Below, piece by piece: positions 1 through 27,413 of a DNA stretch of 64,000 nucleotides; position 1 is the first letter of the stretch; the number at the start of each line of letters is the position of its first letter. The notes under the pieces are model-generated. The model was not told the DNA's origin. It saw only the letters and a list, made by a program, of their open reading frames with translations, and did not search any database. The position numbers were made by a program, and so were the translations under genes. Source of the stretch: Gemmatimonadota bacterium. GTDB lineage: Bacteria > Gemmatimonadota > Gemmatimonadetes > Palauibacterales > Palauibacteraceae. The stretch is taken from contig JBHIAV010000007.1 in assembly GCA_046758745.1 (NCBI GenBank), positions 1 through 64,000 on the forward strand, read 5' to 3'.

Positions 1-420
1 GATGCGACGCTCACCATCACGCGCGTCCCGGAGATCCACTACAACCGACTCGACCTGCGGACGGCGGAGCTCCAGGACGCCACCTGGGCGCTGAACCCGA
101 GCGCCCTCATCAAGTCCAGCGCGAAGCACTCGGCCATCGTGACCGGCGGCTGGATGTTCGTGAGCGGCGGCCTGTACAACGGCGCGCCCAACTCCGCCAC
201 CGAGCACGAGTTCGCCGCGATCAACTCGGACGCCACGGTGGCCAGCTTCGGCGGAGCGACCGGGTCGGAGACGATCGTCGGCGGAGCCGGAGGCGTGCCC
301 TTCTACCACCACGCGGCCGTCGGCTATGTGGACGCAGCTGGCGCGGCGCACGTGATGATCCTCGGCGGAAACGACGTGAACAATCCCTCGACGCCGGTGG
401 CGAACGTGTACTTCTACTAG
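1..420 (+). CDS. C-terminal part of a probable Kelch/beta-propeller-like protein (5'-truncated by window edge)
   Basis: Frame 1 is open from base 1 to TAG at 420; repeated H-x-A-hydrophobic...GG motifs (KHSAIVTGGWMFVSGG; HHAAVGY...MILGG) resemble Kelch blades. Confidence 0.5.
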   Translation, partial: DATLTITRVPEIHYNRLDLRTAELQDATWALNPSALIKSSAKHSAIVTGGWMFVSGGLYNGAPNSATEHEFAAINSDATVASFGGATGSETIVGGAGGVPFYHHAAVGYVDAAGAAHVMILGGNDVNNPSTPVANVYFY

Positions 421-15415: not shown

Positions 15416-18400
15416 ATGAGCCTCCGCATCGTCTGCTCGCGCCGCAATGCTGTCCTGTGGAGTGCCTGCGCGTCGCGATTTCTGGACGAGCTGACACACC
15501 GCACGGGGCCGAGAGGCTACCCCTCCTACCTGTGGATCGCGCACAGGAACCAGCGCGATTCTCTTCTCGAGCTGGCGGCGAATCGGCGGCTGAGCGGATG
15601 GCTGGCGCCGCCCTTCTCCTTCTTCTCGGAGCTGCGGGAGCTCTTCCGCATCGAAGCCCGGCCGGTCGGTATCCTGACTGGCCGGCTCCTCGTCGCGCGG
15701 CTCGCCGCCCGGCTCGCCCGGCAGCTCGGAATGGGAACGGCGACACGCGAGGGCGGCCCCGCTCGGGCGCATATGCTGGACGGCGTGTTCAGCGAGCTCC
15801 TGCCCGAGGGCGTAACGCCGGAGGAGCTTCGGCGAGTGCTCGATCGGCTGGAGGGAGACGACTTCGCGCGGAAGCGGAACGCATGGGTGGCCGATGCGTA
15901 CGCCGCGTTCCTTACGGAGCTCCGGGCGCGCGACCTGTACGATCCCCGGTCGATCCACGCCATGGTAGCAGCGCGCATCGAGGAAGGCTTCCTGGCGGAA
16001 GCGATCGGGGGTGCCGGCCGGCTGCACGTCTACGGCATCACGTCGCTGCGCGGCCGCCGTCGGCTGTTTCGCGCGCTGGCCGAGCAGACGGAGGTGAAGG
16101 TCAGCGTCTACCTGCCCGCCGAAGAGGAGCCCTCCGAATGGGAGGAGCTCGCGACGGAGGGGGTGGAGGAGATCGAGGCACCCGAGACGGGCGGCGACAT
16201 CAAGGTGCAGCCGACTCCCGACGCGGTTCGCGAGGCGACGTGGGTGGCCCGCCAGGTGAAGCGGCTCCTCGCCAAGGGGAAGGCGGAGCCTCACGAGATC
16301 GGGGTCGTCGCCCGCTCGGGGCGGCAGGACACCCGAAAGATGCACATGGCGCTCCGGGCGGCCGGGGTTCCGAGCACGGCGCGCATCCGTACGGTGCTCG
16401 CAGAGATCCCGAGCCTCAAGGCGCTTCTCGAGCTCCTGCGTGGGGAGGCCGAGGTGTGGAGCTACAGGGTCCTCCGGCAGGTGCTGGCGAGCCCGTATTT
16501 CGGCGCCGGGATCGACCTCCGCGCGATCGACCGCATCGCGGGAATGCGCCGTGTCGAGGGGCTCGAGGCGTGGGCCAAGGCGCTCCTGGACGCCGGGGCG
16601 CAGGTAGAGGCGCGAGGGCGAGAGAAGAAGCGCCACGGCCCCGACGGTGTGTCGGCGGACCGGCTCGAGGAGGACATTCCGAGGTTCGAGGCGTTTCGCG
16701 AGAGGGTCGCCGTGCTGGGCGGCGAGCGAGCGGAGCGCGCGTGGATCGACCTCACCCTTGAGGTGCTGGGCGGCAAGCGGTTCGGGTTCCGGCGCCGCCT
16801 CTGTCGGCCGGTCGCCGAGCGGTGGGACATCGTGCGGCTGGACCAGCGCGGAGTCCTTGTGGTGGAGGCCCTTCTCCGGGAGTGGCGGGATCTGGTGGAC
16901 TCCGAGGAGGCATTCGGTGCGGAGGAGTGGCACAACCGCCTCCGGCGACTGCTCGAAGCGAACGAGCTGGCGCTTTCCACGCCACTCCAGGAGGGCGTGC
17001 AGGTGCTCGAGGCTCACGAGGCCGCCCTCACCCCGTTCCGGCACGTCTTCCTGGTGCACGCGAACGACGGCGTCTTTCCGAGAATGGCCGCCGGCACGGG
17101 CGTCTTCTCCGACGCCGAGCGGGGCCGGCTGCGAGAGCTGGGGCTGCCGCTCGCCAACCGGGATGAGGCGATCCGTCGTGAGCGGACGTTGTGGCGCGCG
17201 GTGACGAACGGGGAGCGGGTCACCATCACCTACCGCACGACGGACGCGAACGGCATCCCGCGGCTTCCGTCCCTCATGGTGCCGTCGCACGAGCCTGAGA
17301 CCGAGCTCCCGCGGACCCTGGACATCGCCACCCTGGAGCGCGTGAGGGATGATCTGGAGCCGGTCAGCCCGGCGGAGCAGCGGAGGCGCGACGTGCAGCG
17401 CCTCGCGAAGCTCCGGCGGGGCGGGGAGACGTCGGTCTTCCTCACCCCCGACCCGGCGAGCCTTCGTCACGCCGTGCTGGGGGCCTTCGCGGAGGAGCTC
17501 CGGGCGGGCGGCCTCGACGAGCACGTGAGCTCGGAGCGGGAGCTCATCGTCAACGGGGCGGGGAAGGGCGGCCGGGTGGCGGCCGATCCCGCTTCCCTCT
17601 TCGCGCTCGACCGTCCGCTATCCGAACGCCCGACCGCGTGGAACGGCAAGCTCCGGGACCCGGTCGTCCTCTCGGAGCTCCGACGTCGATTCGGCGAGGA
17701 GCACGTGTGGTCGGCGAGCCGGCTTGAGATGTACGGGCGGCGGCCTTTCGACTTTCTCCTCGAGCACGTGCTGCAGCTCGGCGAGACCGAGGAAGCGGAG
17801 GAGGAGACGACTCCGCTCACTTTTGGGAGCGCGGCCCACGCGCTGCTCGAGCGCTTCTACCGGACGGTGCAGGGGGAGCTGCCGCAAGCTTTCGATGAAC
17901 GAGCCCGGGCGCTCTACCAGCGGGTGGCCGAGGAGGTCTTCGCCGAGTTCGAGGCCGACTGCGAGCGGTGGCTTGGTCTGCCCCCGCTGTGGGCCGTCAC
18001 CCGAGAGGAGGTGCGGGAGAAGGTGGCGGAGTATCTGGCGTGGGAGCTCGAGCACCTGGCGAAGGAGGACGCGCGCCCCCTGCTGGTCGAGTACGAGTTC
18101 GGAGGAGAAGGCGGTCCGGTGGAGCTCGAAGGGCTCGACGCGCGCGGTTGCCCCTCCCGCCTCCGCCTGCGGGGGCGCATGGACAGGGTGGACCGGTACG
18201 GGGAGGGGACGCGGGCGTGGCTGCGGGTCATCGATTACAAGAGCAGCCGCATTCCGAGCGCCGGCAGCTACGAGGACGGTGCCCTCCTGCAGACGGCCCT
18301 GTATATGAAGACGCTCCACACAGCGGGCCATGAGGCCGTGCGGAGCGGCGTCTACCGCCGGATCAAGAATCCTCAGAAGAGAGGGATCGGCGCCGAGCTT

Positions 18401-18586
18401 CGCGGGGCGGCAGTGGACAACGTGCTGAAGTACGCCCTGAGCATCCCGTGCCGCGTACGGGAGGGGCTGTTCGAGGCCGTCCAGGCACGGTCCACGAAGA
18501 TCGAGGATTGGCAGCCGGGCCGCGAGGTGACGCGCAACGAGGCGAGGATCACCACCGGCACGCGCTTCGACGCGGTGAGGGAGTGA
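15416..18586 (+). CDS. addB: AddB-like subunit: inactive helicase region plus C-terminal PD-(D/E)XK nuclease
   Basis: SASRLE, G...H..LE.F, RGRMDRVD, VIDYKS, LQ..LY; directly upstream of the AddA-like gene. Confidence 0.85.
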   Translation: MSLRIVCSRRNAVLWSACASRFLDELTHRTGPRGYPSYLWIAHRNQRDSLLELAANRRLSGWLAPPFSFFSELRELFRIEARPVGILTGRLLVARLAARLARQLGMGTATREGGPARAHMLDGVFSELLPEGVTPEELRRVLDRLEGDDFARKRNAWVADAYAAFLTELRARDLYDPRSIHAMVAARIEEGFLAEAIGGAGRLHVYGITSLRGRRRLFRALAEQTEVKVSVYLPAEEEPSEWEELATEGVEEIEAPETGGDIKVQPTPDAVREATWVARQVKRLLAKGKAEPHEIGVVARSGRQDTRKMHMALRAAGVPSTARIRTVLAEIPSLKALLELLRGEAEVWSYRVLRQVLASPYFGAGIDLRAIDRIAGMRRVEGLEAWAKALLDAGAQVEARGREKKRHGPDGVSADRLEEDIPRFEAFRERVAVLGGERAERAWIDLTLEVLGGKRFGFRRRLCRPVAERWDIVRLDQRGVLVVEALLREWRDLVDSEEAFGAEEWHNRLRRLLEANELALSTPLQEGVQVLEAHEAALTPFRHVFLVHANDGVFPRMAAGTGVFSDAERGRLRELGLPLANRDEAIRRERTLWRAVTNGERVTITYRTTDANGIPRLPSLMVPSHEPETELPRTLDIATLERVRDDLEPVSPAEQRRRDVQRLAKLRRGGETSVFLTPDPASLRHAVLGAFAEELRAGGLDEHVSSERELIVNGAGKGGRVAADPASLFALDRPLSERPTAWNGKLRDPVVLSELRRRFGEEHVWSASRLEMYGRRPFDFLLEHVLQLGETEEAEEETTPLTFGSAAHALLERFYRTVQGELPQAFDERARALYQRVAEEVFAEFEADCERWLGLPPLWAVTREEVREKVAEYLAWELEHLAKEDARPLLVEYEFGGEGGPVELEGLDARGCPSRLRLRGRMDRVDRYGEGTRAWLRVIDYKSSRIPSAGSYEDGALLQTALYMKTLHTAGHEAVRSGVYRRIKNPQKRGIGAELRGAAVDNVLKYALSIPCRVREGLFEAVQARSTKIEDWQPGREVTRNEARITTGTRFDAVRE

Positions 18587-18598
18587 GGTAACCGGGCC

Positions 18599-21500
18599 GT
18601 GCGAGAGATGCGGTGGACGGACGAGCAGGTCGAGGCGATCACGGCCCGCGGGGACGTCCTGCTCGCGGCGAGCGCGGGAACGGGCAAGACGACCACGGTC
18701 GTAGGCAAGGTCCTCTGGCTCCTTGGCCTCGACGTTGGCGTGCAGGCGGGTACCGGCGAGCCCCTTCCTCCCTGTCCCGACCCCTGCGCCGTCGAGGAGA
18801 TCGCGGCGATCACCTTCACGGAGAAGGCGGCGTACGACCTGAAGCGCAAGCTCCGCGCGGAGATCGGGCTTTCGGAGCGGGCGGAGGAGCTCCGGTGGCA
18901 GATCGATCGCGCCTCCGTCGGCACGATTCACGGCTTCTGCGGCGAGCTGCTCCGCGACCACGCCCTGCGACTCGGCATCGACCCGACCTTCCGGATCCTC
19001 GACGAGCGGGAGACCACCCTCCGACAGGACGAGATCATCCGGGACGTCGTCTTCAAAGCGCTCGAGGACCGCGAGCCGGGAGCGCTCGACCTCGTCAAGC
19101 GCTTCACCCTGCCGGGTCGGCGGCAGCGCGCGGGGACGATCGGGCATGTGCGCAGCGTCCTGCACGACATCCGATGGCGGCACAAGCGCTACGAGGGCTG
19201 GACCGCCGACCGAGCGGGCGGAGACGAGCGACCGCGAGAGCTGGCCGAGGAACGGCTGCGGGCGATCGCCGAGCGGGCCGGGGTTTGGGACGAGCTGCTT
19301 GCGAACGCCGAGCTCGACGAGCGCGCCGTGCGCGATGCCGCGGCGCTCTACCGTCTCGCCTTCGAGTCGCTCCGCCGGTGGCTCGCCTGGCTGGAAGAGG
19401 AGAACGTCCGCGACTTCGACAGCCTGATCCTCGACGCGCGCCGGCTCCTCACACGCGAAGCGACCCGTCCGGCGCTCGAGAGCATCCGGCGGTGGTACCG
19501 GATCCTCATCATCGATGAGTTCCAGGACACGGACGGCGCGCAGCGCGACATCGCGTTCGCGATCGCCGGCATCGCGGTGCGGGGCGGTACGGGTGAGCCG
19601 GGCCCGCGCAGGCGGGCCGGCGGCGCGCCGCAGCTCTTCCTGGTCGGCGACCCCAAGCAGAGCATCTATCGCTTCCGCGGCGCCGACATCTCGGTGTGGA
19701 ACGCGGTCCGCCGGGCCCTGTGCGGCGACGGCGAGCCGCTCCAGCTCACGCACAACTTCCGGAGCGAGCCGCAGGTCGTCGATTTCGTGAACCGCGTGTG
19801 CTCGAGGGCCATGAGCGAGCGCGCGGCGGCGATCGCCCCCGAGATGCCGGAGAGCCGGGTCGACTACCGAACGCTGGTGCCGGCGCGCCGTCCGAGCCGA
19901 GCGGCGGGCCTCGAGTGGCTGGCAGTGGACGGCGGGAGCAACCAGGCGGACCGGCGGGAGATCGAAGGAAAGCTCGTCGCCTCCCGGATCCTCCAGCTGG
20001 TGGGACGCGCCGCGGTCGTCGATCCGGAAACGAGACGGCCGCGCCCCTGCCGGCTGCGTGACATCGCGATCCTCGGGCGAACCCGCGACGCGCTCGCCGC
20101 CGTCGAGCGTGGCCTGCGCCGGTACGGCATCCGCACGTACAACACGGCGACGAGCGGGCTGGCCGACAGACAGGAGATCCTGGATCTGGTGACCGCCCTT
20201 CGGCTGATCGACAAACCGCACGATGATCTGCGTGCCTTCGCCTACCTGCGCTCCCCCTTCGTCGGCCTGCGCGACGAGATCCTCTCCCGCATCCGCCTCG
20301 ACCGCGCTACGGGCGGCGGCTCTTTCCTCCGGCAGGCGGAGCGCTTCGTCGAGGCGACGGCGGCGAGCGAGATCGAGTGGCCCGCCGCCCCGGAAAGCCC
20401 CCACGTCGCGCAGGTGGAGCTCGAGGCGCTGGAGGCCGGCCTCCGGGCCATCCTCGACGCGCACACGCTCGTCGACCGGGCGGACACGGCCGAGCTGCTC
20501 GAGGAGGTGCTGCAGCGCACCGGGTATCGGCTTCATCTTCTCCTGCGCGATGGGGCGGCCGAAGCCACGGCGAACATCGAGCGCTTCCTCGCGCTCCTCG
20601 AGGAGTACCGCCACCTCTCCCTCGGCAGCTTCCTCGTCCTGTGGGACCGGTGGGGCGAGCGCGACCTCGGGATCCCGCAGGCGCCGCTGTTCAGCCACGA
20701 CGACGACGTGGTGACCCTGAGCACGATCCACACGGCGAAGGGGCTCGAGTGGCCAGTCGTCTTCCTCATCGACGCCGGCGACGGGCCCGACATGGGAAGC
20801 CGGCTCACCGATACCTACTGGAGCGATCCGAAACTCGGACCGGTGTTCATGCCGAAGAAAGCCGAGCGCGGAGCGTGGTGCGCCAAGCTCTTCGAGCGGG
20901 CGCTACTGGAAGAGCATGCCGAGGAGGCGCGGCTCCTGTACGTGGCGACGACCCGTGCGCGCGACCGGTTCGTCGTCTCCGCTCCGACGGAGCGGCTCAA
21001 AGGGTATGCCGCGTGGCTCGGGCTCGGGCTGGAGGACGCCGTCGAAGTCGCGGAGGCGGGGTGGCTCGCCGATGCGGTGGGGCCCGAGGAGCCGACGGGC
21101 GAAGTCCCGGGAAGCGCAGGGAGTCAGTTCGAGCTGTTTCCCGGCGGCGTCGAGGGACCGGCCGCCACGGGCGAGACGCCGGCCGCTCCAGACGGGGTGT
21201 CGGCCACGGCGGAGGAGAAAGCCGGCGTCGTGGCGGGTCACATCGAGCGCGCAGTGCGGCCGATGGTGGTCCATCGCGAGCCGATCGCCATCCAGACCCT
21301 CCTCAGGCCATCGCCGGTCTCGCTCGCCTGGCTCGAGGGCGTCGAGCCCGCCGAGTGGCCGGAGCTCGTCAGGCCGGTTCCCACGCCTAGGCTCCGCTTC
21401 ATGACGTCCGCCACGGAGCTCATGATGCGCGAGCGGGATCCGGAGTCGTGGAAGCTCCGCTACCTGCACGGGGTGGAGCCCTGGTGGCGATTCGCCCCCG

Positions 21501-22147
21501 ATCCCGAGGCGGAGCGCACGCTCTCGGGGACGGTGCGAGGCGCGCTCATTCACGGCGTGCTTGAGCGGATCCAGGAGGCGGAAGAGCTCGCCCGCGTGCT
21601 GAACGAGACGATCGCCGGGATCGGGGCGCCAGACCTCGAGGAGCTCCTGGCGCCGGGCACGGAGTACCGGCGGGCGCTCGAGCGGGAGATCGAGCGGGTC
21701 GTGCAGAGCGAGACATGGGAGTGGTACGTGGAGGGGGAGCACTACCGTGAGCTCGCCTTTCTGCGCCTCCTGGGACCGCGGGAGTGGCGCCACGGGCGCT
21801 TCGACCTCTATCGCCCGTCCGGCGCCCGCTCGACGGGCCGGGAGATCGGCGTGGCGAGGGATGGTTCGGCGGCCGACGGAGAGGACTCCTGGATCATCGA
21901 CTTCAAGACGCACCAGATCGGGGAGGGGGAGGTGTGGTCGACCGCGAAGGAATACGAGGTCCAGGTGGCGGTGTACCGGGAGGCGGCGGAGGCGCTGACC
22001 GGCTCGGTGGCTCTCGCCGGTGTGGAAGCGGCCGGCGGAGCGGGAACAGCTTCGGGCGAACTCGGGGGGACGGCGTCCGATGTGTCCGGCCGAGTACGGG
22101 TCGTCCTCCACTTCACGCACCCGAACGTGGTCGTGGAACCGGGCTGA
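18599..22147 (+). CDS. addA: AddA-like UvrD/SF1 helicase with C-terminal RecB-type nuclease
   Basis: Q-motif, ASAGTGKT, ITFTEKAA, TIHGFC, IDEFQD, VGDPKQSIY.FRGAD, NFRS, TIHTAKGLEW, LYVA.TRAR, G.FDL...IIDFKT..Q..VY. Confidence 0.92.
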   Translation: MREMRWTDEQVEAITARGDVLLAASAGTGKTTTVVGKVLWLLGLDVGVQAGTGEPLPPCPDPCAVEEIAAITFTEKAAYDLKRKLRAEIGLSERAEELRWQIDRASVGTIHGFCGELLRDHALRLGIDPTFRILDERETTLRQDEIIRDVVFKALEDREPGALDLVKRFTLPGRRQRAGTIGHVRSVLHDIRWRHKRYEGWTADRAGGDERPRELAEERLRAIAERAGVWDELLANAELDERAVRDAAALYRLAFESLRRWLAWLEEENVRDFDSLILDARRLLTREATRPALESIRRWYRILIIDEFQDTDGAQRDIAFAIAGIAVRGGTGEPGPRRRAGGAPQLFLVGDPKQSIYRFRGADISVWNAVRRALCGDGEPLQLTHNFRSEPQVVDFVNRVCSRAMSERAAAIAPEMPESRVDYRTLVPARRPSRAAGLEWLAVDGGSNQADRREIEGKLVASRILQLVGRAAVVDPETRRPRPCRLRDIAILGRTRDALAAVERGLRRYGIRTYNTATSGLADRQEILDLVTALRLIDKPHDDLRAFAYLRSPFVGLRDEILSRIRLDRATGGGSFLRQAERFVEATAASEIEWPAAPESPHVAQVELEALEAGLRAILDAHTLVDRADTAELLEEVLQRTGYRLHLLLRDGAAEATANIERFLALLEEYRHLSLGSFLVLWDRWGERDLGIPQAPLFSHDDDVVTLSTIHTAKGLEWPVVFLIDAGDGPDMGSRLTDTYWSDPKLGPVFMPKKAERGAWCAKLFERALLEEHAEEARLLYVATTRARDRFVVSAPTERLKGYAAWLGLGLEDAVEVAEAGWLADAVGPEEPTGEVPGSAGSQFELFPGGVEGPAATGETPAAPDGVSATAEEKAGVVAGHIERAVRPMVVHREPIAIQTLLRPSPVSLAWLEGVEPAEWPELVRPVPTPRLRFMTSATELMMRERDPESWKLRYLHGVEPWWRFAPDPEAERTLSGTVRGALIHGVLERIQEAEELARVLNETIAGIGAPDLEELLAPGTEYRRALEREIERVVQSETWEWYVEGEHYRELAFLRLLGPREWRHGRFDLYRPSGARSTGREIGVARDGSAADGEDSWIIDFKTHQIGEGEVWSTAKEYEVQVAVYREAAEALTGSVALAGVEAAGGAGTASGELGGTASDVSGRVRVVLHFTHPNVVVEPG

Positions 22148-22306
22148 GCGGCGCGAGGCCGACCGCTCGTTCGGCGCTCGGGCCCGTGGCACGTACCCTG
22201 CGCAGAATGGGAAGGGGGCGGTGAGCATACGAAGGGGGCGGTAACTGGCCCTTCAGGCTTTACCGGTCGACGCCGGAGGGCTCGGCTCGAGCGGAAGCAG
22301 AGTGTG

Positions 22307-22336
22307 TTGACAAGCCCCGAGGTGGAGGGGTACAGA
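22307..22336 (+). promoter_or_regulatory. Sigma70-type promoter TTGACA-N18-TACAGA
   Basis: Perfect -35 box; no plausible CDS downstream on +, so it probably drives the structured RNA. Confidence 0.55.
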
Positions 22337-22341
22337 TAGCA

Positions 22342-22572
22342 CCGCGGGGATGTCTCCACGGAACGACAGGGCCGCACCGGGAATGACCTCCCGGCGATCG
22401 GGCAGTGGGTTCATGAGCGCCTTCCGAGCCCCGACCGTGGGCGGTGTGTCCCGACTTTCGTAGAGGATCAGACAGCGGGCGGGGCTAAGGCCCACGGGAC
22501 TCCGAAAGGACCCTGCAACCTTCATGTCCGGTTGCCTCGTGCCTAAGGCCCCGCTCGCCCCTTACGCTTTTC
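22342..22572 (+). ncRNA. Candidate ~220-nt two-domain structured RNA (unassigned)
   Basis: Domain 1 (22342-22478) is a long irregular hairpin. Domain 2 (22475-22558) is a branched fold with a TCC-GAAA-GGA tetraloop and a GCAACC/GGTTGC hairpin. Several G-U pairs work only on +. Pyrimidine tail follows. Confidence 0.65.
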
Positions 22573-22728
22573 TCCTCGCGCTCCTCCCGTGATCGGCCAC
22601 ACCTCTCGCGCTCGCCGGGCCACTGCCCCCGGGCGGCGCCACGGCACACGGGCGCACGGGCCGCATGAGGGGTGCTCGAAGCCTACGGCGGTCTCGGCCA
22701 GGGCGACGATACTCAAGGGATAAGAAGC

Positions 22729-22801
22729 GGGCGGACCAGCGGTTTCGTGTGGGGGCGCTTACGCACATCTCGGCCGGTCCGCCCTGATCCGCTTCGGGAT
22801 C
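22729..22801 (-). promoter_or_regulatory. Conserved structured 3' UTR, copy 1 (small GATCC hairpin plus 12-bp GC stem, terminator-like)
   Basis: GGGCGGACC 22729-37 pairs with GGTCCGCCC 22776-84 and extends via a G-U on the minus strand; near-identical to 23257-23329. Confidence 0.7.
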
Positions 22802-22816
22802 TCTATGTGTAATGGG

Positions 22817-23095
22817 CTAGAAGTCTACCCATATGTCGTTGTCAGCCGCGATGGTACGCAGCTTGGTGATAGGGGCGGCCGGGTCGTTCGACAGCTTCGC
22901 CACCCGCACCTCGCCACTGGCGGTGACCGAAATCAGCGGCGAATGGCCCACCGCGAGCGCATCCGGCGGCACCCTGAACAGGGTGCCTGTTTCGAGGGTC
23001 ACGTAGGAGCCTGGGCTTTCGATCTCGTTGAAGACCATCTCCGGTAGACGATTGGTGAGATGGTCGCGTGCGACCTTCCGGGCTTGAGTAACCAC
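22817..23095 (-). CDS. 92-aa protein of unknown function, paralog 1
   Basis: AAGGAG SD plus GTG; about 69/92 aa identical to 23344-23622 with mostly conservative changes. Confidence 0.9.
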   Translation of the reverse strand: MVTQARKVARDHLTNRLPEMVFNEIESPGSYVTLETGTLFRVPPDALAVGHSPLISVTASGEVRVAKLSNDPAAPITKLRTIAADNDIWVDF

Positions 23096-23099
23096 GACT

Positions 23100-23123
23100 T
23101 CAGCTCCTTGAACGACGGTTCAT
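23100..23123 (-). CDS. Leader micro-ORF MNRRSRS (copy 1)
   Basis: GAGGAAAAGGAC before ATG; contains the SD of the main gene; TGA 4 nt before GTG; same layout in copy 2. Confidence 0.55.
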   Translation of the reverse strand: MNRRSRS

Positions 23124-23171
23124 GTCCTTTTCCTCTCGAGATGTGCGGTTGCAGTCTCCCCACAACAACAC

Positions 23172-23197
23172 AACAACCGACCCTCCGGGCGGTTCCC
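23172..23197 (-). promoter_or_regulatory. ECF-type promoter GGAAC-N17-GTT (copy 1)
   Basis: GGGAACC and CGGTTGTT boxes are kept in both copies while the spacer has diverged. Confidence 0.6.
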
Positions 23198-23256
23198 GGT
23201 AGCTAACCGGCCGGTTTCTGCGAGGAGTGGGGACTACGCGTTTCTCGGGAAGAGGT

Positions 23257-23329
23257 GGGCGGACCGGCCGCAGGCTGGAGGGGCGCATGTGCACATCTCG
23301 GCCGGTCCGCCCTTGATCCGCTTCGGATC
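23257..23329 (-). promoter_or_regulatory. Conserved structured 3' UTR, copy 2
   Basis: Perfect 14-bp stem GGGCGGACCGGCCG 23257-70 / CGGCCGGTCCGCCC 23299-312; GATCCG/CGGATC hairpin 23315-29. Confidence 0.7.
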
Positions 23330-23343
23330 TCTATGGTGGTAGG

Positions 23344-23622
23344 CTAGAAGTCAACCAGGATGTCGTTGTCAGCCGCGATGGTGCGCAGCTTGGAGATCGG
23401 AGTGGCTGGACTGTCCGACAGCTTCGCTACCCGAACCTCCCCACTGGAGGTGATCGAGATCAACGGCGAGTGACCCGCTGCGAGCCCTTCCGGTGGAACC
23501 CTGAACAGGGTGCCTGATCCGAGGGCCACGTAGGATCCAGGGCTTTCAATCTCGTTGAAGACCATCTCCGGGAGACGATTCGACCGTCTTTGACCTGAGG
23601 CGGCGGGCGCTTGGGTAGCCAC
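23344..23622 (-). CDS. 92-aa protein of unknown function, paralog 2
   Basis: AAGGAG SD plus GTG; paralog of 22817-23095. Confidence 0.9.
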   Translation of the reverse strand: MATQAPAASGQRRSNRLPEMVFNEIESPGSYVALGSGTLFRVPPEGLAAGHSPLISITSSGEVRVAKLSDSPATPISKLRTIAADNDILVDF

Positions 23623-23626
23623 GATG

Positions 23627-23650
23627 TCAGCTCCTTGTGTGACGGTTCAT
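23627..23650 (-). CDS. Leader micro-ORF MNRHTRS (copy 2)
   Basis: Same SD, length and 4-nt spacing to GTG as copy 1. Confidence 0.55.
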   Translation of the reverse strand: MNRHTRS

Positions 23651-23699
23651 GTCCTTTTCCTCTCGTCGATGTGCACATGCAGCTTGCAGTTGCCGAAAG

Positions 23700-23726
23700 A
23701 ACAACCGCCACTTCCACCGGGTTCCC
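23700..23726 (-). promoter_or_regulatory. ECF-type promoter GGAAC-N18-GTT (copy 2)
   Basis: GGGAACC...CGGTTGTT at the equivalent position to copy 1. Confidence 0.6.
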
Positions 23727-24014
23727 AGCAGGCCTCTGGTGGCTTTCCTCAGTGGGAGCCGAACTCCTCGGCGTGGTCATCGATCGACGCGTCGACGGCC
23801 TGAAGGGCGTAATCTCGACATACGCGTGCACGAGCCGGGTCGGTCCGGCCCGACCTCGAGCCCGTGTCACGGCGCGGCCTCCAGCGATAGAAGGGCGGCG
23901 GAAAGGTCATGCCGAGAACCGCCGCAGGCTATCCTCGGGCAGGCGGTGAGGGAAGACGTTCGGTCGTGGCGGAGCGCACCCGACCGGTTGGCCGCTGCCG
24001 AGGTCTGGAGCCGC

Positions 24015-24476
24015 TTACGGCGTCATGCTGCTGTTCCAGATGTCCCGGTGGAGCTTCCAGCTCCCATCCACCTTCTTCCACACCACGATGTACTTGCCGT
24101 GATCGAGATGGGCGCCATCCGCCCCTGTGACCACATACGAGCCCCTCACCTCGATCGCCGTTTCGCCGAAGTCCTCCACCTCGCCCATCTTCAGCTCGGC
24201 CTGTGACCCTGACTCCACGGCACTCTGCCAGAACGCTTGGATCGCCTCACGGCCCTCGATGGGCTCGCTTCCCGGCGGCAGCAGCATCGCGTCGTCCGTG
24301 TACAGCGCCGCGATGCCGGCCCCGTCGCCCGCGTTCCACGCCGCTTCCCACGCCTCGGTCGCCTCCGCGATCGCCGCCCGCGTGTCGCTGGAGGCCTGGC
24401 CGAGGCTGACGGAAGGAAGCGCCAACAGGGACGCACACAGCATTGGTACCACGTTACGCATGGTTCTCAGCTCCAT
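24015..24476 (-). CDS. Secreted NTF2-like / DUF4440 protein
   Basis: Signal peptide; WN.GD...IAALYT.DA.LLPPG...I.GR.AI..FW; GKY.VVWKK..G.WK..RDIWNS. Confidence 0.88.
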   Translation of the reverse strand: MELRTMRNVVPMLCASLLALPSVSLGQASSDTRAAIAEATEAWEAAWNAGDGAGIAALYTDDAMLLPPGSEPIEGREAIQAFWQSAVESGSQAELKMGEVEDFGETAIEVRGSYVVTGADGAHLDHGKYIVVWKKVDGSWKLHRDIWNSSMTP

Positions 24477-24567
24477 CTTAAGGGGGGACGAGCGTGGTTA
24501 CATGCCGCTAGGAAGCTCGCGGTCATGCTCGAATACTGCGCCCTAGGCTACGGTAGACGGACTCGAA

Positions 24568-24972
24568 CTACAACGGTTGGCCCAGGGTCAGCGGTCCGTA
24601 GCCGTACGTCGTTACCATCCAATAGAGGATGAGCGCGGCGCCGGCCATCGAGAGGTTCTTCATGAACTGCGCCTGCTCGACCTGCTTCATCGCCGGATCG
24701 GCAACGGCCCAGAAGTTGTGCATTATGAAAGCCGTCGGGACGAGAAAAAGCACGAGCAGCCAGGTCCCGATTTCCATCCAGATGCCGAGCAGGACGCTAA
24801 GGCCGCCCGCCAGGATCATGAGGCCGGTCGCCATCACGGCAAGCTTCGAGGCAGGGACGCTCTTCGAGCCGGCGTACTGGGACATGGGACCGATCTGTGC
24901 GAAGTGACCGAGCCCGGACCCGATGAAGATCATGGCGAAGAGCATGCGGCCGATGACGTACAGCGTGTCCAT
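24568..24972 (-). CDS. DoxX family membrane protein
   Basis: GR.LF...FI.SG..H; H.FW; FMKN.SM.GAAL; GGAGG SD. Confidence 0.92.
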   Translation of the reverse strand: MDTLYVIGRMLFAMIFIGSGLGHFAQIGPMSQYAGSKSVPASKLAVMATGLMILAGGLSVLLGIWMEIGTWLLVLFLVPTAFIMHNFWAVADPAMKQVEQAQFMKNLSMAGAALILYWMVTTYGYGPLTLGQPL

Positions 24973-25210
24973 CTCTCCTCCCGGTCGGGTGGGCGGGTCG
25001 GGGCGAGGAGCGCCGCGCTGCGCGGGACGCCGGCGGCCAGTCCCATCTTAGGATGCGGCACCGCCCGTACGCCAGCGGTGGGGGGAGCGAAGGTGTGGGG
25101 GGCTCGGGACGAGGGGTCTGCGAGCTTATATAGTTCTGCTAGCATATCGCTCCCGCGGAGCCCGCATGAGCTGAACGGAGCGGCCGTCCTCACGACCGGA
25201 GGGGGAGGTA

Positions 25211-25399
25211 GTGGAAGGAGCCGAGCACCCCGCCATCGAGGACGAGCTGAAGGATTTCGTGAAAGGGCGGCTGGCGGCCTACAAACACCCCCGCCGGATC
25301 ACTTCCGTCGATGGGCTGTCGAAGACGGCCACGGGAAAGATCCGGCGGTTTCTTCTGCGAGCAGGCGGCCGGGATGCCTCGCGGGACGTGCGAGCTTGA
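25211..25399 (+). pseudogene. Remnant C-terminus of an AMP-binding (acyl/aryl-CoA ligase) enzyme
   Basis: ELKDFVKGRLAAYKHPR.I..VD.L.KTATGKI.RF.LR matches the adenylate-forming A10 region; rest of the gene is absent. Confidence 0.7.
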
Positions 25400-26124
25400 A
25401 TCCGATCCTGGCCGTCCTCCTCTACTCCTCCCTCGCGGCGGCCGTGGCGGCGGTCGGTGTGCTCCCCCTGGTCGGCCGTGAGAGCGTTCCGAGCCGGTGG
25501 GTCGGCTGGGCGAGCGCCCTAGCGGCCGGCATGATGCTGGGGGCCGCGTACATGCTGATGGCGGTCAAGGGCGCTCGCCCGATCCCCGAGGCCGCCGGAG
25601 CCGCGCTCGGGATCCTCTTCATCGCTTGGACGCACGCGGTTACGCGGACGAGCGATCTCGACCTTAGGCGGCTCTCCGAGCAGGAGCCCGCCTACGGCTA
25701 CCAGGTGGTGCTGATCGACACCTTGCACTCGGCCTCCGAGGGAGTGGCGATCGGACTCGCCGCGGTCGTCGACCTCTCGTTCGGCCTCGTCATGGCGTTC
25801 GCGATGGCCGTGCACAACATACCCGAGGCCACGATCCTCGGCGCGGTGCTCCGAGCCGGAGGCGTTCGCCTCGGTGAGGCGGCGGGGCTCGCGGTGGCCA
25901 CGAACCTGAGCCAGATCCTCCTCGCGGTCGCGACCTTCGCCGTCGTCTCGGCCGCCCCCGGGGTGCTCCCGTGGGGGATGGGGTTCGCGGCGGGAGCGCT
26001 CCTCAACCTGGTCATGGTTGAGCTCCTTCCGGAGAGTTACCGAGAAGCCGGGCACACGAGCATCGCTCTCGTCACGAGCGTGGCTCTGGGCTTGGTGGTG
26101 CTGCTCAATGGGATGATCGCGTGA
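25396..26124 (+). CDS. ZIP family metal transporter (first of a pair)
   Basis: AAG.MLGA, LHS..EGVAIG, HNIPE, GFAAGA motifs; TTG start chosen. Confidence 0.88.
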   Translation: MNPILAVLLYSSLAAAVAAVGVLPLVGRESVPSRWVGWASALAAGMMLGAAYMLMAVKGARPIPEAAGAALGILFIAWTHAVTRTSDLDLRRLSEQEPAYGYQVVLIDTLHSASEGVAIGLAAVVDLSFGLVMAFAMAVHNIPEATILGAVLRAGGVRLGEAAGLAVATNLSQILLAVATFAVVSAAPGVLPWGMGFAAGALLNLVMVELLPESYREAGHTSIALVTSVALGLVVLLNGMIA

Positions 26125-26143
26125 ACCGCACGGAGGGTTCTGA

Positions 26144-26872
26144 ATGTACCTGGCGCTGATCGTTCTCCTGTACGGACTCATCACGGCGCTCGCCACCGGT
26201 CTCGGGGCCGTGCCGTTCGTCTTCGTGAGATCGATCTCCCCGCGCGTCGTGGCGTTCGCCAACGCGGTGGCGGCCGGCCTCATGCTGGGCGCCTGCTTCG
26301 GTCTTCTGGCCGAGGGCACGGGCTACGGGGGATGGCAGACGATCGGCGGGGCGAACCTCGGCGTGGTGTTCATCCTGATCACGCAACGGTGGTTGGCACG
26401 TCACGACCTCCGTTTCGGGGCGATGGGCGGGAGGAGCGCCCGGCGTATGGTGTTGATGGTGCTCGTGATGACGGTGCATTCCTTCTCGGAGGGTGTGGCC
26501 ATTGGCGCTTCCTTCGGCGGCGGAATGGGGCTCGCCACCCTCATCACGGGGGCGATCGCCGTTCACAACATCCCCGAGGGTCTGGCGATCAGCGCCGTGC
26601 TCCGCCCGCGGGGAGCCGGGATCTTCGCCTGCGCCGGGTGGAGCGTCTTCTCCTCGCTTCCGCAGCCGCTCATGGCGGTGCCGGCGTTCCTCTTCGTGGA
26701 CGCCTTCGCGCCCGCCCTCCCGTACGGGATCGGCTTCGCCGCCGGTGCCATGATCTTCATGGTCTTCCTCGAGCTCCTGCCCGAGGCGTACGAGCAGGCG
26801 CCGAAGCCTGCGATCGGCCTGGTCACCTGCCTCACCCTGGTGGCGATGCTCCTCTTCCAGGAGTACCTGTAG
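26144..26872 (+). CDS. ZIP family metal transporter (second of a pair)
   Basis: TALATGLGA.P, VHSFSEGVAIG, AIAVHNIPEG, GFAAGAM, ELLPEA; GGAGG SD. Confidence 0.92.
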   Translation: MYLALIVLLYGLITALATGLGAVPFVFVRSISPRVVAFANAVAAGLMLGACFGLLAEGTGYGGWQTIGGANLGVVFILITQRWLARHDLRFGAMGGRSARRMVLMVLVMTVHSFSEGVAIGASFGGGMGLATLITGAIAVHNIPEGLAISAVLRPRGAGIFACAGWSVFSSLPQPLMAVPAFLFVDAFAPALPYGIGFAAGAMIFMVFLELLPEAYEQAPKPAIGLVTCLTLVAMLLFQEYL

Positions 26873-26950
26873 CGGCTCGCCGGGCGGCAGCAGCCTGAGC
26901 GAAGCGGCGCGGGAGGAGTGGGGGGGGGCCGCGCGGGACGCCGCCGACCC

Positions 26951-26983
26951 TCGGGTCAGGACCGGCCTGGGTCGTGACCCCGA
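26951..26983. terminator. Hairpin between convergent genes
   Basis: GGGTCA/TGACCC and GACC/GGTC stems; no clear U-tract. Confidence 0.4.
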
Positions 26984-26987
26984 CCGG

Positions 26988-27413
26988 CTAGAAGACCGAT
27001 ATGGTCGAGTGGTCCAGCACCGTTTTCACATCCAGCTCGAGATCGTCCCCGGGCTGGACGTGCACCTGATCTGAGAGGAAGGCGGCGGTCGAGCCCACCG
27101 GGTCCACGAGGAAGCGGAGCTCCGCGGCGGTCTGCTGGAAGATGGGCGGGAGGTTGAAGGCGGCCGTCGTCTTGGCCGAAACGGTCCCGAGGCGGACCAC
27201 GGTGCCTCCACGCACCGCGTACACGGTGACGTCCAGCACGTTGGCGTTCTCCACCACGATCCGCGTCGGCTCCGTCGCGGGCGCTTCCTCGCCTTCCGCG
27301 GCCGGCGGCTCGGGCCGCCCGGAAGCGCACCCGAGCGCCGTGACCCCTGCCAGTGCCAGCGCCGCCGGCCAAAGAAGGGCCAGTCGCTCGCGTCTCCGTC
27401 GACAACGCTCCAT
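26988..27413 (-). CDS. Small hypothetical lipoprotein downstream of SusD
   Basis: Lipobox ALGC; compact beta-rich domain VEN...DV.VYA......RLG.V; start uncertain. Confidence 0.75.
   Translation of the reverse strand: MERCRRRRERLALLWPAALALAGVTALGCASGRPEPPAAEGEEAPATEPTRIVVENANVLDVTVYAVRGGTVVRLGTVSAKTTAAFNLPPIFQQTAAELRFLVDPVGSTAAFLSDQVHVQPGDDLELDVKTVLDHSTISVF

Follow-up and report, generated by a model that had tools for sequence, protein, structure and literature searches.

Complementary leader and hairpin-loop segments in two tandem small-gene cassettes of a Gemmatimonadota bacterium: a candidate pseudoknot-like closure of the message

Only few bacterial mRNAs are known to us whose regulation involves pairing of the 5' UTR with the 3' UTR of the same molecule, among them hok and other type I toxin messages, icaR, and hbs. 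For hok, the tac/fbi 5'-3' stem is described as working together with a leader ORF and an antisense RNA; the short upstream frame overlaps the initiation region of the main gene, and in hok/Sok the small RNA is complementary to the initiation region of the leader ORF (PMC9841398). In icaR of Staphylococcus aureus, the motif UCCCCUG of the 3' UTR pairs with the Shine-Dalgarno region, and a blocked initiation as well as the formation of an RNase III substrate are the outcomes proposed in that account (PMC3868564). [quoted passage not shown] The toxin message of the aapA1/IsoA1 system of Helicobacter pylori is described as being under the control of mRNA folding and of an antisense RNA (PMC5416894). 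A literature search at the level of titles and abstract openings returned no description of an interaction between a terminator loop and a leader.

The window, i.e. the whole stretch of 64,000 nucleotides analysed here, contains two tandem cassettes, both located on the minus strand and each consisting of one small gene of an unnamed family. The proteins of copy 2 and copy 1 are 75% identical (69/92 residues). The coding and leader features are as follows.

22817-23095, minus strand: ORF of copy 1, 92 aa, GTG start
23344-23622, minus strand: ORF of copy 2, 92 aa
23100-23123, minus strand: upstream mini-ORF of copy 1, MNRRSRS and stop, read from the sequence
23627-23650, minus strand: upstream mini-ORF of copy 2, MNRHTRS and stop, from the alignment of the copies
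23118-23135, minus strand: leader block GAGGAAAAGGACATGAAC, identical in both copies
23170-23197, minus strand: putative ECF-type promoter-like motif GGGAAC-N17-GTT of copy 1, common to both copies
about 23697-23726, minus strand: equivalent of this motif in copy 2, from the sequence

An upstream ORF of seven codons is present in both copies. In copy 1 it includes the main Shine-Dalgarno sequence AAGGAG, and its stop codon lies 4 nt before the GTG start. The frame of the upstream ORF is not conserved, because the upstream AUG of the protein relatives P0004 and P0156 is in frame with the main ORF. The leader block occurs at only two sites of the genome if up to 2 mismatches are allowed, and the N-terminal extensions of P0004 and P0156 (..SEEKDMN..) are compatible with its bases. 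Extension residues of the same two proteins (G-T...L-F) also fit the ECF-type motif, which may serve as promoter. The promoter of an ECF sigma gene at 13.3 kb was considered as a counterpart of this motif and was rejected, showing just a loose GAAC...CGTC resemblance.

Downstream of the stop codon, each cassette carries a GC-rich hairpin.

22729-22784, minus strand: 3' hairpin of copy 1, stems 22729-40/22773-84, 12 bp including one G-U pair, 32-nt loop
23257-23312, minus strand: 3' hairpin of copy 2, stems 23257-70/23299-312, perfect stem of 14 bp, 28-nt loop

The hairpin of copy 1 (MFE -32.0 kcal/mol, z -2.46) is terminator-like with a pyrimidine/U-rich tail, and that of copy 2 is more stable (-39.4 kcal/mol, z -4.32). 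One stem pair is G-C in copy 2 and G-U in copy 1, which fits a minus-strand RNA. A terminator scan called no canonical terminator at the hairpins, the U-tracts of which are weak. Two other assignments were tried and rejected. When up to 1 mismatch is allowed, a 13-mer of the hairpin stem matches the genome at 53 sites, which is approximately the composition expectation and does not indicate a genome-wide repeat. Integron attC sites and REP elements were dismissed as well, since a separate conserved leader and promoter-like motif go with each cassette, and further copies of the hairpin do not occur.

The complementary segments, which flank each ORF as repeats 364-370 bp apart, are located as follows.

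22762-22772, minus strand: 3' arm of copy 1, CGCACATCTCG, the first 11 nt of the loop, straight after the 5' strand of the stem
23137-23147, minus strand: 5' arm of copy 1, CGAGATGTGCG, ending 1 nt before the purine-rich Shine-Dalgarno block
22748-22754, minus strand: second 3' segment of copy 1, TGTGGGG, 7 nt, complementary to 23158-64
23158-23164, minus strand: second 5' segment of copy 1, CCCCACA, 7 nt
23285-23297, minus strand: 3' arm of copy 2, GCATGTGCACATC, loop positions 2-14
23668-23680, minus strand: 5' arm of copy 2, GATGTGCACATGC, 13-nt match to the 3' arm

Since the cassettes lie on the minus strand, the arm with the higher coordinates is the 5'-UTR arm. The arms are 100% complementary over 11 nt in copy 1 and over 13 nt in copy 2, and these matches, together with the 7-nt match of copy 1, had already been given at the same positions in the first-pass annotation. 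A counterpart of the second 7-bp helix is absent from copy 2 in the two-copy alignment. The 3' arm had been placed in the loop of the terminal GC hairpin, and this holds for both copies, with loops of 28-32 nt in which the arm begins 0-1 nt past the 5' strand of the stem. The 5' arm had been placed directly upstream of a Shine-Dalgarno sequence. The GAGG block follows the end of the perfect duplex at a distance of 1 nt in copy 1 and of 5 nt in copy 2.

Runs of at least 11 nt (copy 1) or at least 13 nt (copy 2) did not occur in any of 200 shuffles of each 3' UTR, the maximum being 9. When 40,000 random placements of the same geometry were made in this genome, a run of at least 11 was found in 366 (0.9%) and one of at least 13 in 20 (0.05%). 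A lone pair of this kind in one gene is unremarkable genome-wide. This does not hold for the same pair at homologous sites of both copies and of a distant relative.

The blocks carrying the arms are conserved better than synonymous sites. Between the copies, the leader from the arm to the GTG codon is identical at 48 of 58 positions (83%) and the region from the stop codon to the end of the hairpin at 63 of 88 (72%), compared with 25 of 41 four-fold sites (61%) and with 24 of 60 and 14 of 29 positions of the outer flanks. With the 3' partner limited to the hairpin loop, the predicted energies of pairing within the copies are -37.2 and -30.2 kcal/mol, and those of pairing across the copies -25.4 and -20.1 kcal/mol, so that the arms are predicted to prefer their own copy by 10-17 kcal/mol. 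A nested fold of the whole message of copy 1 gave an arm-pair probability of about 0.999, the arm helix displacing part of the stem. For copy 2, this kind of fold favours the hairpin, with an arm-pair probability of 0.0 as computed by a nested method that cannot score a pseudoknot. The complementarity of the arms as well as their position, conservation and copy specificity were established in silico.

The arms had further been described as showing copy-specific compensatory changes, which proved to be an overstatement. Of the 16 pairs of the arm helix in the two-copy alignment, 11 are invariant, four are unpaired in one copy, and a single one is compensatory (C-G to U-A). The covariation score was reached by 230 of 500 shuffles in a test comprising two complete cassettes; covariation between the copies is weak and not statistically supported. 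The copies share a core of 7 bp (GCACATC/GATGTGC), from which they lengthen the helix in opposite directions. This 7-nt core is invariant in every sequence examined and therefore gives no information on pairing; it could instead be a protein-recognition motif. A near-palindrome of the GATGTGCACATC type surrounds the core in copy 2, in the metagenomic relative L004 and in a related contig from sequencing run X4.

Sequences from beyond the window lend stronger support to the pairing, above all the distant relative L004. The contig of L004 covers the 3' end of a cassette only. Its last 29 residues are identical to those of the proteins P0156 and P0157 (29/29), which both belong to the 90%-identity cluster of P0004; P0004 itself is 63% identical to copy 1, as is, approximately, its cluster. 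The GC hairpin is retained in L004 with stem changes from G-C to A-U and G-U, and GATGTGCAC is found within its 18-nt loop. Three lineages thereby keep the 3' arm on the 5' side of the loop. The mis-called N-terminal extensions of P0004 (..KRVHIRSEEKDMN..) and P0156 (..KRVHVQSEEKDMN..) are compatible at the codon level with a 5' arm that would match 15-16 nt of the L004 loop, where the link between L004 and P0156 consists of the 29 C-terminal residues on separate contigs and a protein does not give third codon positions. Compared with copy 2, this putative arm would change A-U to G-C and U-G to A-U, and P0156 would additionally contain a G-U wobble. In the contig from run X4, GTGCACATC precedes the same leader block (loose end at 23663). 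No arm pairing was found in three relatives of the other subfamily (the paralog on contig C37, G447/L082 and G063/L006), the longest runs being 6, 7 and 8. The arms are therefore clade-specific and dispensable to the protein family.

These observations are best accounted for by pairing of the 5' leader with the 3' hairpin in cis, and of the fold-back and closed-loop forms proposed earlier it is this general one that is supported by the conservation of the UTRs, the three lineages and the within-copy energies. Pairing of the 5' UTR with the terminator loop may produce a pseudoknot-like closure that controls translation or decay; in our judgement this reading has about an even chance of being correct. 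Each cassette would be transcribed into a minus-strand message of approximately 450 nt, with a promoter and two ends predicted from the sequence. We infer that both arms are part of this transcript, that they pair in vivo, and that the pairing has an effect. A leader segment of 11-13 nt would pair with the large loop of the 3' hairpin on its own message, in the 5' part of that loop, and it would end 1-5 nt upstream of the conserved purine-rich block with its Shine-Dalgarno-like sequence and AUG. Since the 3' arm begins 0-1 nt after the 5' strand of the stem, the arm duplex could stack on the stem. Such stacking would yield an H-type pseudoknot-like closure of 23-27 quasi-continuous bp joining both ends of the mRNA. 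The probable consequence would be a post-transcriptional control, as in the closed form a helix would contain the 5' end together with the RBS-proximal region. Initiation at the upstream AUG and at the main GTG coupled to it could be lowered in this way, 5'-end-dependent RNases could be kept from the 5' end, or a substrate of RNase III could arise. Circularisation of the RNA, which had been proposed earlier as well, found no support in the present data.

Alternatively, the two arms might be conserved separately, one as a leader or RBS element and the other as part of a terminator hairpin, and their complementarity might be a relic of an inverted duplication or a chance match, inherited by the copies and the relative. 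We regard this as unlikely. The 0.9% of placements with runs of at least 11 would correspond to about two dozen genes, given the size of this genome, and the two copies, being duplicates, count as one event. The scarcity of compensatory pairs (1/16, with four broken in one copy) speaks in the same direction, and over about 30 nt the copy 1 loop, read as its reverse complement, runs colinear with the leader, like an old inverted duplication. However, identity at four-fold sites has dropped to 61%, yet 11-13 perfect arm pairs are found in both copies, and the copies have extended the helix in differing directions, which does not resemble simple decay. Moreover, the 3' motif occupies the exact place in the loop of L004, the cluster of which is about 63% identical to copy 1, and the putative arm of P0004/P0156 fits loop bases specific to L004.

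An action at the level of DNA, with the repeats serving as inverton-like recombinase sites that flip the ORF or as paired operators of a dimeric regulator recognising the near-palindrome GATGTGCACATC, is improbable. The distance of the repeats around the ORF and the invariance of the core sequence itself would suit it, and the arms of copy 2, L004 and X4 each fit 10-11 of 12 positions of a perfect palindrome. The possibility of an inversion between the repeats had been raised previously, but the contigs of four runs were colinear, without any strand-changing joint, and the sole joint listed was a 129-nt skip in one X4 contig. The data of these four DNA runs, three of which may be the source of the present DNA, were Logan contigs of a single study, and as contigs drop rare variants and hide minority forms, this result is weak evidence against inversion. 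Furthermore, a Pfam scan of 17 large ORFs located from 9 to 39 kb revealed no recombinase family. Nor is the palindrome enriched, TGTGCACA occurring 10 times in the genome versus approximately 26 times estimated from composition, and ATGTGCACAT is present three times, two of which are the arms. In copy 1 both arms have lost the palindrome at corresponding positions and kept their mutual complementarity, and a DNA site leaves no role for a 3' arm in the loop of a hairpin, the stem of which accepts G-U pairs solely in minus-strand RNA.

It is also quite unlikely that the 3' hairpin, either as a stable fragment or on a read-through transcript from copy 2 into copy 1, pairs in trans with the leaders of the sister cassette for cross-regulation or dosage control. 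The 7-nt core is common to the copies, cross pairs are predicted at -20 to -25 kcal/mol, the hairpin of copy 2 lies just about 110 nt upstream of the 5' arm of copy 1, and the loop of copy 2 is self-complementary (ATGTGCACAT). Against this stand the predicted 10-17 kcal/mol in favour of the own copy, the divergence of the copy 1 arms from copy 2, which weakens cross pairing, and the single-cassette 3' end of L004, which still has the loop motif. A control of termination, in which the emerging loop is bound by the 5' arm while the 3' half of the stem has yet to be transcribed, so that termination at the large-loop hairpin changes in efficiency and sets the read-through into the next cassette or the convergent sRNA-like element, is equally improbable, as the argument for it is purely geometric (loops of 28-32 nt, unusually large for intrinsic terminators, with weak U-tracts; an L004 loop of 18 nt, or about 12 nt with its G-U pairs formed, which in the predicted fold is too short for a 16-bp duplex while the stem stays closed, so that a full-length arm duplex would be sterically incompatible; the partial displacement of the copy 1 stem in the nested fold), while 15-21 free loop nucleotides would let stem and arm helix coexist in copies 1 and 2, and we know of no precedent for the capture of a nascent terminator loop.

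A new observation is that a conserved sRNA-like element adjoins the cassettes, a loop of which complements the leader around the upstream AUG.

22307-22337, plus strand: promoter-like sequence TTGACA-N18-TACAGAT of the sRNA-like element, read from the sequence
22475-22575, plus strand: sRNA-like core with a long closing stem, a GAAA-loop hairpin, a hairpin at 22515-22535 and a U-rich tail
22521-22529, plus strand: 9-nt hairpin loop TTCATGTCC, exact complement of GGACATGAA

The sequence GGACATGAA is present around the upstream AUG in the leaders of both cassettes, which gives a Watson-Crick run of 9 nt with both mRNAs; the sRNA-like hairpin loop would act on this stretch adjoining the arm. In comparison with L004, nearly all columns of the core are identical (an estimated 92%), including the loop stem GCAACC/GGTTGC, and the flanks are unalignable. 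Ahead of the homologous core, and with the same orientation, L004 carries TTGACA-N17-TACCAGT. Both strands of the element fold about equally well, and the plus strand is preferred solely because of this conserved promoter-like motif; a strict sigma-70 scan did not list the motif at 22307-22337. The core is a single copy in the genome, and among the other 400 genomes of the phylum besides G000 just five marginal matches of 19-34 nt were obtained. Rfam yielded no match at E ≤ 1 for arms, hairpins or the sRNA-like element on both strands of the region 20000-27000.

The 92-aa protein has no match in Pfam, NCBIfam, PHROGs or PADLOC, and no toxin or defence family was matched. A profile search of the PDB returned just marginal matches to repeat proteins, and all scores in the ESM Atlas were below 0.9, with a pLDDT of 0.42 for its own model. 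Large proteins with multi-stretch matches (P0058, P0130 and P0122) were rejected as unrelated repeat proteins. With a GRAVY of about 0 and maximum 19-residue Kyte-Doolittle values of 0.89 and 0.72 in the two copies, the protein is non-hydrophobic.

In total, 332 protein relatives were found at E ≤ 1e-3. Excluding G000, the family was detected in none of 60 related genomes and in one of 400 genomes of the phylum, two of 144 of the order and two of 400 of the class. The phylum, order and class matches are all either marginal or members of the other (..VNF) subfamily, and arms are absent from every one of them. Searches of genome contigs with a protein pattern (55 candidate stretches) and with the 18-nt leader (53 stretches, examined by tblastn) revealed no stretch encoding a relative, and a search of metagenome contigs gave one locus, of which the 3' end is covered. 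Viral contigs contained no match to the protein or to the pattern of the sRNA core; two matches to the leader pattern were unrelated and AT-rich and were discarded. Plasmids and phages gave no match by tblastn. In a synteny comparison aimed at an insertion, DUF4440, DoxX and ZIP were all absent within the loci downstream of addA in 11 relatives.

It is tempting to regard the 1.7-kb stretch 22300-23730 as a self-contained, patchily distributed RNA-controlled module that follows the logic of hok/Sok and guards a soluble protein of 92 aa, although we consider this wider interpretation rather doubtful. It would comprise three layers of RNA, namely a pseudoknot of leader and terminator loop, a coupled upstream frame and a dedicated sRNA pairing with the upstream AUG. 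If the protein is growth-inhibitory, the locus would represent a toxin-antitoxin system resembling type I, the toxin of which is not a membrane protein, in an uncultivated bacterium from hydrothermal vents. Together with the co-conserved sRNA-like neighbour it offers a compact, clonable test bed of about 1.8 kb for multilayer RNA control, and it may give a first functional handle on an unannotated protein family of more than 300 members.

The locus resembles hok/Sok in several features. Here, the sequence shows 5' and 3' arms that would form 11 and 13 bp, a seven-codon upstream ORF, which terminates 4 nt ahead of the GTG codon, includes the main Shine-Dalgarno sequence, and the loop of a neighbouring sRNA-like element is complementary to the upstream AUG. 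In contrast to the hydrophobic membrane toxin of about 50 aa, the protein encoded here is non-hydrophobic and has 92 aa. Instead of being cis-antisense, the sRNA-like gene is convergent at a distance of about 600 nt, and its match comprises only 9 (+4) nt; no overlapping cis-antisense gene was identified at the leader. A convergent neighbour with a leader-complementary loop resembles trans-encoded type I antitoxins, the RNA being putative in the present case. Unlike in hok, the 3' arm is located in a hairpin loop and not at the extreme 3' tail, and in the P0004 lineage the upstream and the main ORF share one frame. An alternative partner of the 5' arm, as in a ucb/dcb-like switch, was not found at this locus. 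The comparison with aapA1/IsoA1, described as a 30-aa toxin peptide with a cis-antisense RNA, serves as a lead only.

With icaR, as far as that system is described in its source, the cassettes share a cis pairing of 3' and 5' UTR within one bacterial mRNA, and the same outcomes would be possible. Because the duplex stops 1-5 nt short of the Shine-Dalgarno-like block and leaves the Shine-Dalgarno sequence uncovered, a direct occlusion as in icaR is not supported. A further difference is the 3' partner, which on sequence grounds lies here in the loop of a terminator-like hairpin. Hbs, in the part of the system described, is similar in the length of a 5'/3'-UTR helix on a short message for a small protein (11-13 bp here, and putatively up to 16 in L004/P0156), whereas gene and phylum are unrelated. 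If the pairing proposed here is real, it would extend the principle of 5'/3'-UTR pairing to a deep-branching uncultivated lineage and would contribute a distinct geometry, the 3' partner residing in the loop of a terminator-like hairpin and a pseudoknot closing the message.

The 92-amino-acid proteins encoded by the tandem cassettes, copy 1 and copy 2, have 69 of 92 residues in common, and the cassettes can be aligned for about 500 nt, starting at a shared upstream motif and ending with the 3' hairpin. Each cassette contains two complementary segments (arms), one in the leader and one in the loop of the 3' GC hairpin. The features are as follows.

22817-23095, minus strand: ORF of copy 1 (92 aa)
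23344-23622, minus strand: ORF of copy 2 (92 aa)
23137-47, minus strand: 5' arm of copy 1 (mRNA sense), 11 nt, perfect match to the 3' arm
23668-80, minus strand: 5' arm of copy 2 (mRNA sense), 13 nt, perfect match to the 3' arm
22762-72, minus strand: 3' arm of copy 1, in the hairpin loop
23285-97, minus strand: 3' arm of copy 2, in the hairpin loop
23100-23123 and 23627-23650, minus strand: 7-codon upstream ORFs, MNRRSRS* (copy 1) and MNRHTRS* (copy 2)
23170-23197 and ~23697-23726, minus strand: promoter-like GGGAAC-N17/18-GTT upstream of each cassette

The segments described in the first-pass annotation were found where it had located them, and all four are perfectly complementary; an additional 7-nt complementary pair occurs in copy 1 only. 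Its placement of the 3' arm in the GC hairpin loop also holds, as this arm begins 0-1 nt past the 5' strand of the stem and fills the 5' part of the loop (32-nt loop on a 12-bp stem in copy 1; 28-nt loop on a 14-bp stem in copy 2). The 5' arm had been placed directly upstream of the Shine-Dalgarno sequence of the upstream ORF; perfect pairing ends short of an 18-nt leader block, GAGGAAAAGGACATGAAC, by 1 nt in copy 1 and by 5 nt in copy 2. This block is identical in both copies and has no further genomic site at ≤2 mismatches. The Shine-Dalgarno sequence itself lies outside the arms. Between stop codon and large hairpin, a small hairpin GATCC..GGATC (22787-22802 and the copy 2 equivalent, ~23315-23329, minus strand) is conserved in both copies.

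None of 200 shuffles per copy equalled the observed arm run (longest shuffled run 9). The genome itself sets a stricter null: among 40,000 random placements with the same geometry, runs of at least 11 occurred in 366 (0.9%) and of at least 13 in 20 (0.05%), so that one gene with such an arm pair would be unremarkable. The arms had also been credited with copy-specific compensatory changes. They are indeed copy-matched, since the predicted pairing, with the 3' partner limited to the hairpin loop, is better within a copy (-37.2/-30.2 kcal/mol) than across copies (-25.4/-20.1 kcal/mol), but the compensation consists of one base pair. When a 16-pair arm helix and the 12-pair hairpin stem were written into the two-copy alignment and the pairs counted, 11 arm pairs were invariant, four were unpaired in one copy, and one differed in both bases (copy 1 C-G, copy 2 U-A). 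The covariation score was matched by 230 of 500 shuffles, and thus the two-sequence covariation lacks statistical support. Both copies share a 7-bp core (GCACATC/GATGTGC), which copy 1 lengthens by 4 bp (three toward the Shine-Dalgarno side), with three mismatches on the opposite side; copy 2 lengthens it by 6 bp on that opposite side, away from the Shine-Dalgarno sequence.

Four-fold degenerate sites, counted only in codons with identical residues, are identical between the copies at 25 of 41 positions (61%). The corresponding values are 48/58 (83%) from the 5' arm to the GTG start and 63/88 (72%) from the stop codon to the hairpin end; outside these blocks identity is 40-48%. Other lineages are more informative than this comparison. 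The family profile matches 332 proteins at E ≤ 1e-3 in a library of 1.84 billion representatives. Most are about 90 aa long; PG.Y, G.L.R[VI]P and SP motifs are conserved, and the C-terminus is ..NF or ..DF. The 92-aa protein matched no Pfam, NCBIfam, PHROGs or PADLOC model and, by sequence, no solved structure. Close relatives are very rare: a word-indexed protein search gave five clusters, including the two to which the window's proteins belong.

One metagenome contig, L004, carries the C-terminal 29 codons of a relative, with residues identical to those of proteins P0156 and P0157, which cluster at 90% identity with P0004 (63% identical to copy 1). Downstream follows the same GC hairpin, with a stem G-C to A-U change plus G-U pairs and an 18-nt loop, GGGATGTGCACACGCTTT; a different small hairpin lies between stop codon and large hairpin. 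The 5' side of this lineage is visible solely via P0004 and P0156, mis-called long ORFs whose N-terminal extensions translate the leader (..KRVHIRSEEKDMN.. and ..KRVHVQSEEKDMN..). SEEKDMN in these extensions fits the conserved leader block, and KRVH(I/V) fits AAGCGTGTGCAC(A/G)TC, which is reverse-complementary to 15-16 nt in the loop of L004. This putative arm, deduced from residues that leave third codon positions free and linked to L004 solely by the 29 C-terminal residues shared with P0156, would show A-U to G-C and U-G to A-U changes with respect to copy 2, and in P0156 a G-U wobble.

The genome assembly comprises 3.08 Mb (68% G+C, 87% complete), and the window DNA is present in four runs of a single hydrothermal-vent metagenome study. 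One of these runs, X4, contains a related strain or species, with contigs matching 22401-23958; its cassette differs at 5 of 62 letters in the aligned stretch. In X4, a loose end of a third relative beside the conserved leader block reads GTGCACATC, preceded by AAACGT. The arms are real, non-random in their context and conserved. Relatives of the ..VNF subfamily have ordinary small-loop terminators and showed no 5'/3' complementarity, the longest runs being 6 (third paralog of this genome), 7 (G447/L082) and 8 (the distant G063/L006); the arm feature is therefore confined to one clade of the family. The third paralog (contig C37:14730-15005 = L003 1498-1776, minus strand; 55-59% identical) is followed, just past its terminator, by the same 10 nt, GCCGAGATGT, with which the 3'-arm region of both copies begins, possibly a relic.

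In the RNA, the order is 5' arm, ORF, 5' strand of the stem, 3' arm, remaining loop and 3' strand of the stem, an arrangement that corresponds to an H-type pseudoknot. Judged from this geometry, arm helix and stem, 0-1 nt apart, could stack into 23-27 quasi-continuous bp, and the 15-21 leftover loop nucleotides of copies 1 and 2 would suffice to span the arm helix. Nested folding, whose scoring does not extend to pseudoknots, chose the arm helix in copy 1 (pair probabilities ~0.999) at the cost of part of the stem, and retained the 14-bp stem in copy 2 (arm-pair probability 0.0). Because the L004 loop is too short for the full putative duplex with the stem closed, pairing there would be partial or compete with the stem.

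The GGGAAC-N17/18-GTT motif resembles the consensus of ECF-sigma promoters, and the G-T...L-F residues of the P0004/P0156 extension fit it at the same spacing. If it is a promoter, the 5' arm would lie within about 15-25 nt of the 5' end. A gene for an ECF-type sigma factor (Sigma70_r2/r4) is located at ~13.4-14.85 kb together with one for a Metal_resist-domain protein; their own upstream region has only a loose GAAC...CGTC resemblance to the cassette motif. The upstream ORF includes AAGGAG, the Shine-Dalgarno sequence of the main ORF, and its stop lies 4 nt before the GTG start. In the P0004/P0156 lineage, the main ORF shares its frame with this upstream AUG, which there lies 27 instead of 28 nt before GTG; hence the bases are conserved and the peptide and reading frame are not.

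A cis interaction between 5'-UTR and terminator loop is the best available reading, held with roughly even confidence; its basis is a pair of complete cassettes, a single 3' fragment and deduction from codons. Closure of the message by the arms would most likely control initiation and/or decay. Such pairing is of a known kind in bacterial mRNAs; precedents are tac/fbi of hok (PMC9841398), icaR (PMC3868564) and the 14-bp helix of hbs (PMC5737220). Unusual here is the loop-presented geometry.

The invariant arm core would fit sequence-specific recognition no less than pairing. A DNA-level repeat fits less well: the 3' arm occupies the same hairpin-loop place in three lineages, and this placement, which suits the presentation of an RNA sequence and has no role in a DNA repeat, favours RNA. 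G-U pairs in the hairpin stem arise only on the minus-strand transcript, and in copy 1 the palindromic half of the motif has disappeared from both arms at matching positions, with complementarity retained. Regarding DNA inversion, no recombinase family was found among 17 large ORFs scanned (9-39 kb), and the contigs of the four runs, which hide minority forms, contained no strand-changing joint. A genome-wide operator palindrome is ruled out by the site counts (TGTGCACA, 10 sites versus an estimated ~26 expected from base composition; ATGTGCACAT, three sites, two of them the arms).

The cassettes are accompanied by a convergent neighbour.

22307-22580, plus strand (L004 ~205-390, reverse strand): conserved non-coding sRNA-like element, between the cassettes and the upstream addA-like gene

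Directly upstream of the module lies an AddAB/RecBCD-like pair of long genes (15416-22147, plus strand; UvrD-helicase and PD-(D/E)XK nuclease domains); genes downstream of addA vary among 11 relatives, so this neighbourhood is not conserved. The 90-nt core of the element (22475-22565), single-copy in this genome, is an estimated ~92% identical to sequence just downstream of the L004 cassette, with unalignable flanks, and X4 carries ~79 nt of a relative's core (6 differences and 1 insertion). No Rfam family matched, and the other 400 genomes of the phylum gave only marginal matches of 19-34 nt, in 5 genomes. A TTGACA-N17/18-TAC(A/C)AG(A)T motif faces the cassette at both loci; this promoter-like motif would fit a plus-strand sRNA, convergent to the cassettes and ~230 nt long in the window. 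In its predicted fold, the core forms a long closing stem that encloses one hairpin with a GAAA loop and a second, GCAACC[TTCATGTCC]GGTTGC. The 9-nt loop of the second hairpin is exactly complementary to GGACATGAA, which comprises the upstream AUG and the bases 5' of it in both leaders; of 300 shuffled cores, 6 attained a 9-nt run against the leader. CCTC after this stem could pair with the leader GAGG, and a window-specific second site, GGTTCATG, near 22408, complements CATGAACC. Both strands of the element fold about equally well; if minus-strand, it would be a leader mimic instead of an antisense RNA. The element probably belongs to the cassette system, and the locus merits cloning for its possible link to a dedicated sRNA.

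Unlike in hok/Sok, the protein is not a hydrophobic peptide, and toxicity is not implied. In architecture, the combination of arms, upstream ORF and sRNA-like element parallels hok/Sok point by point.
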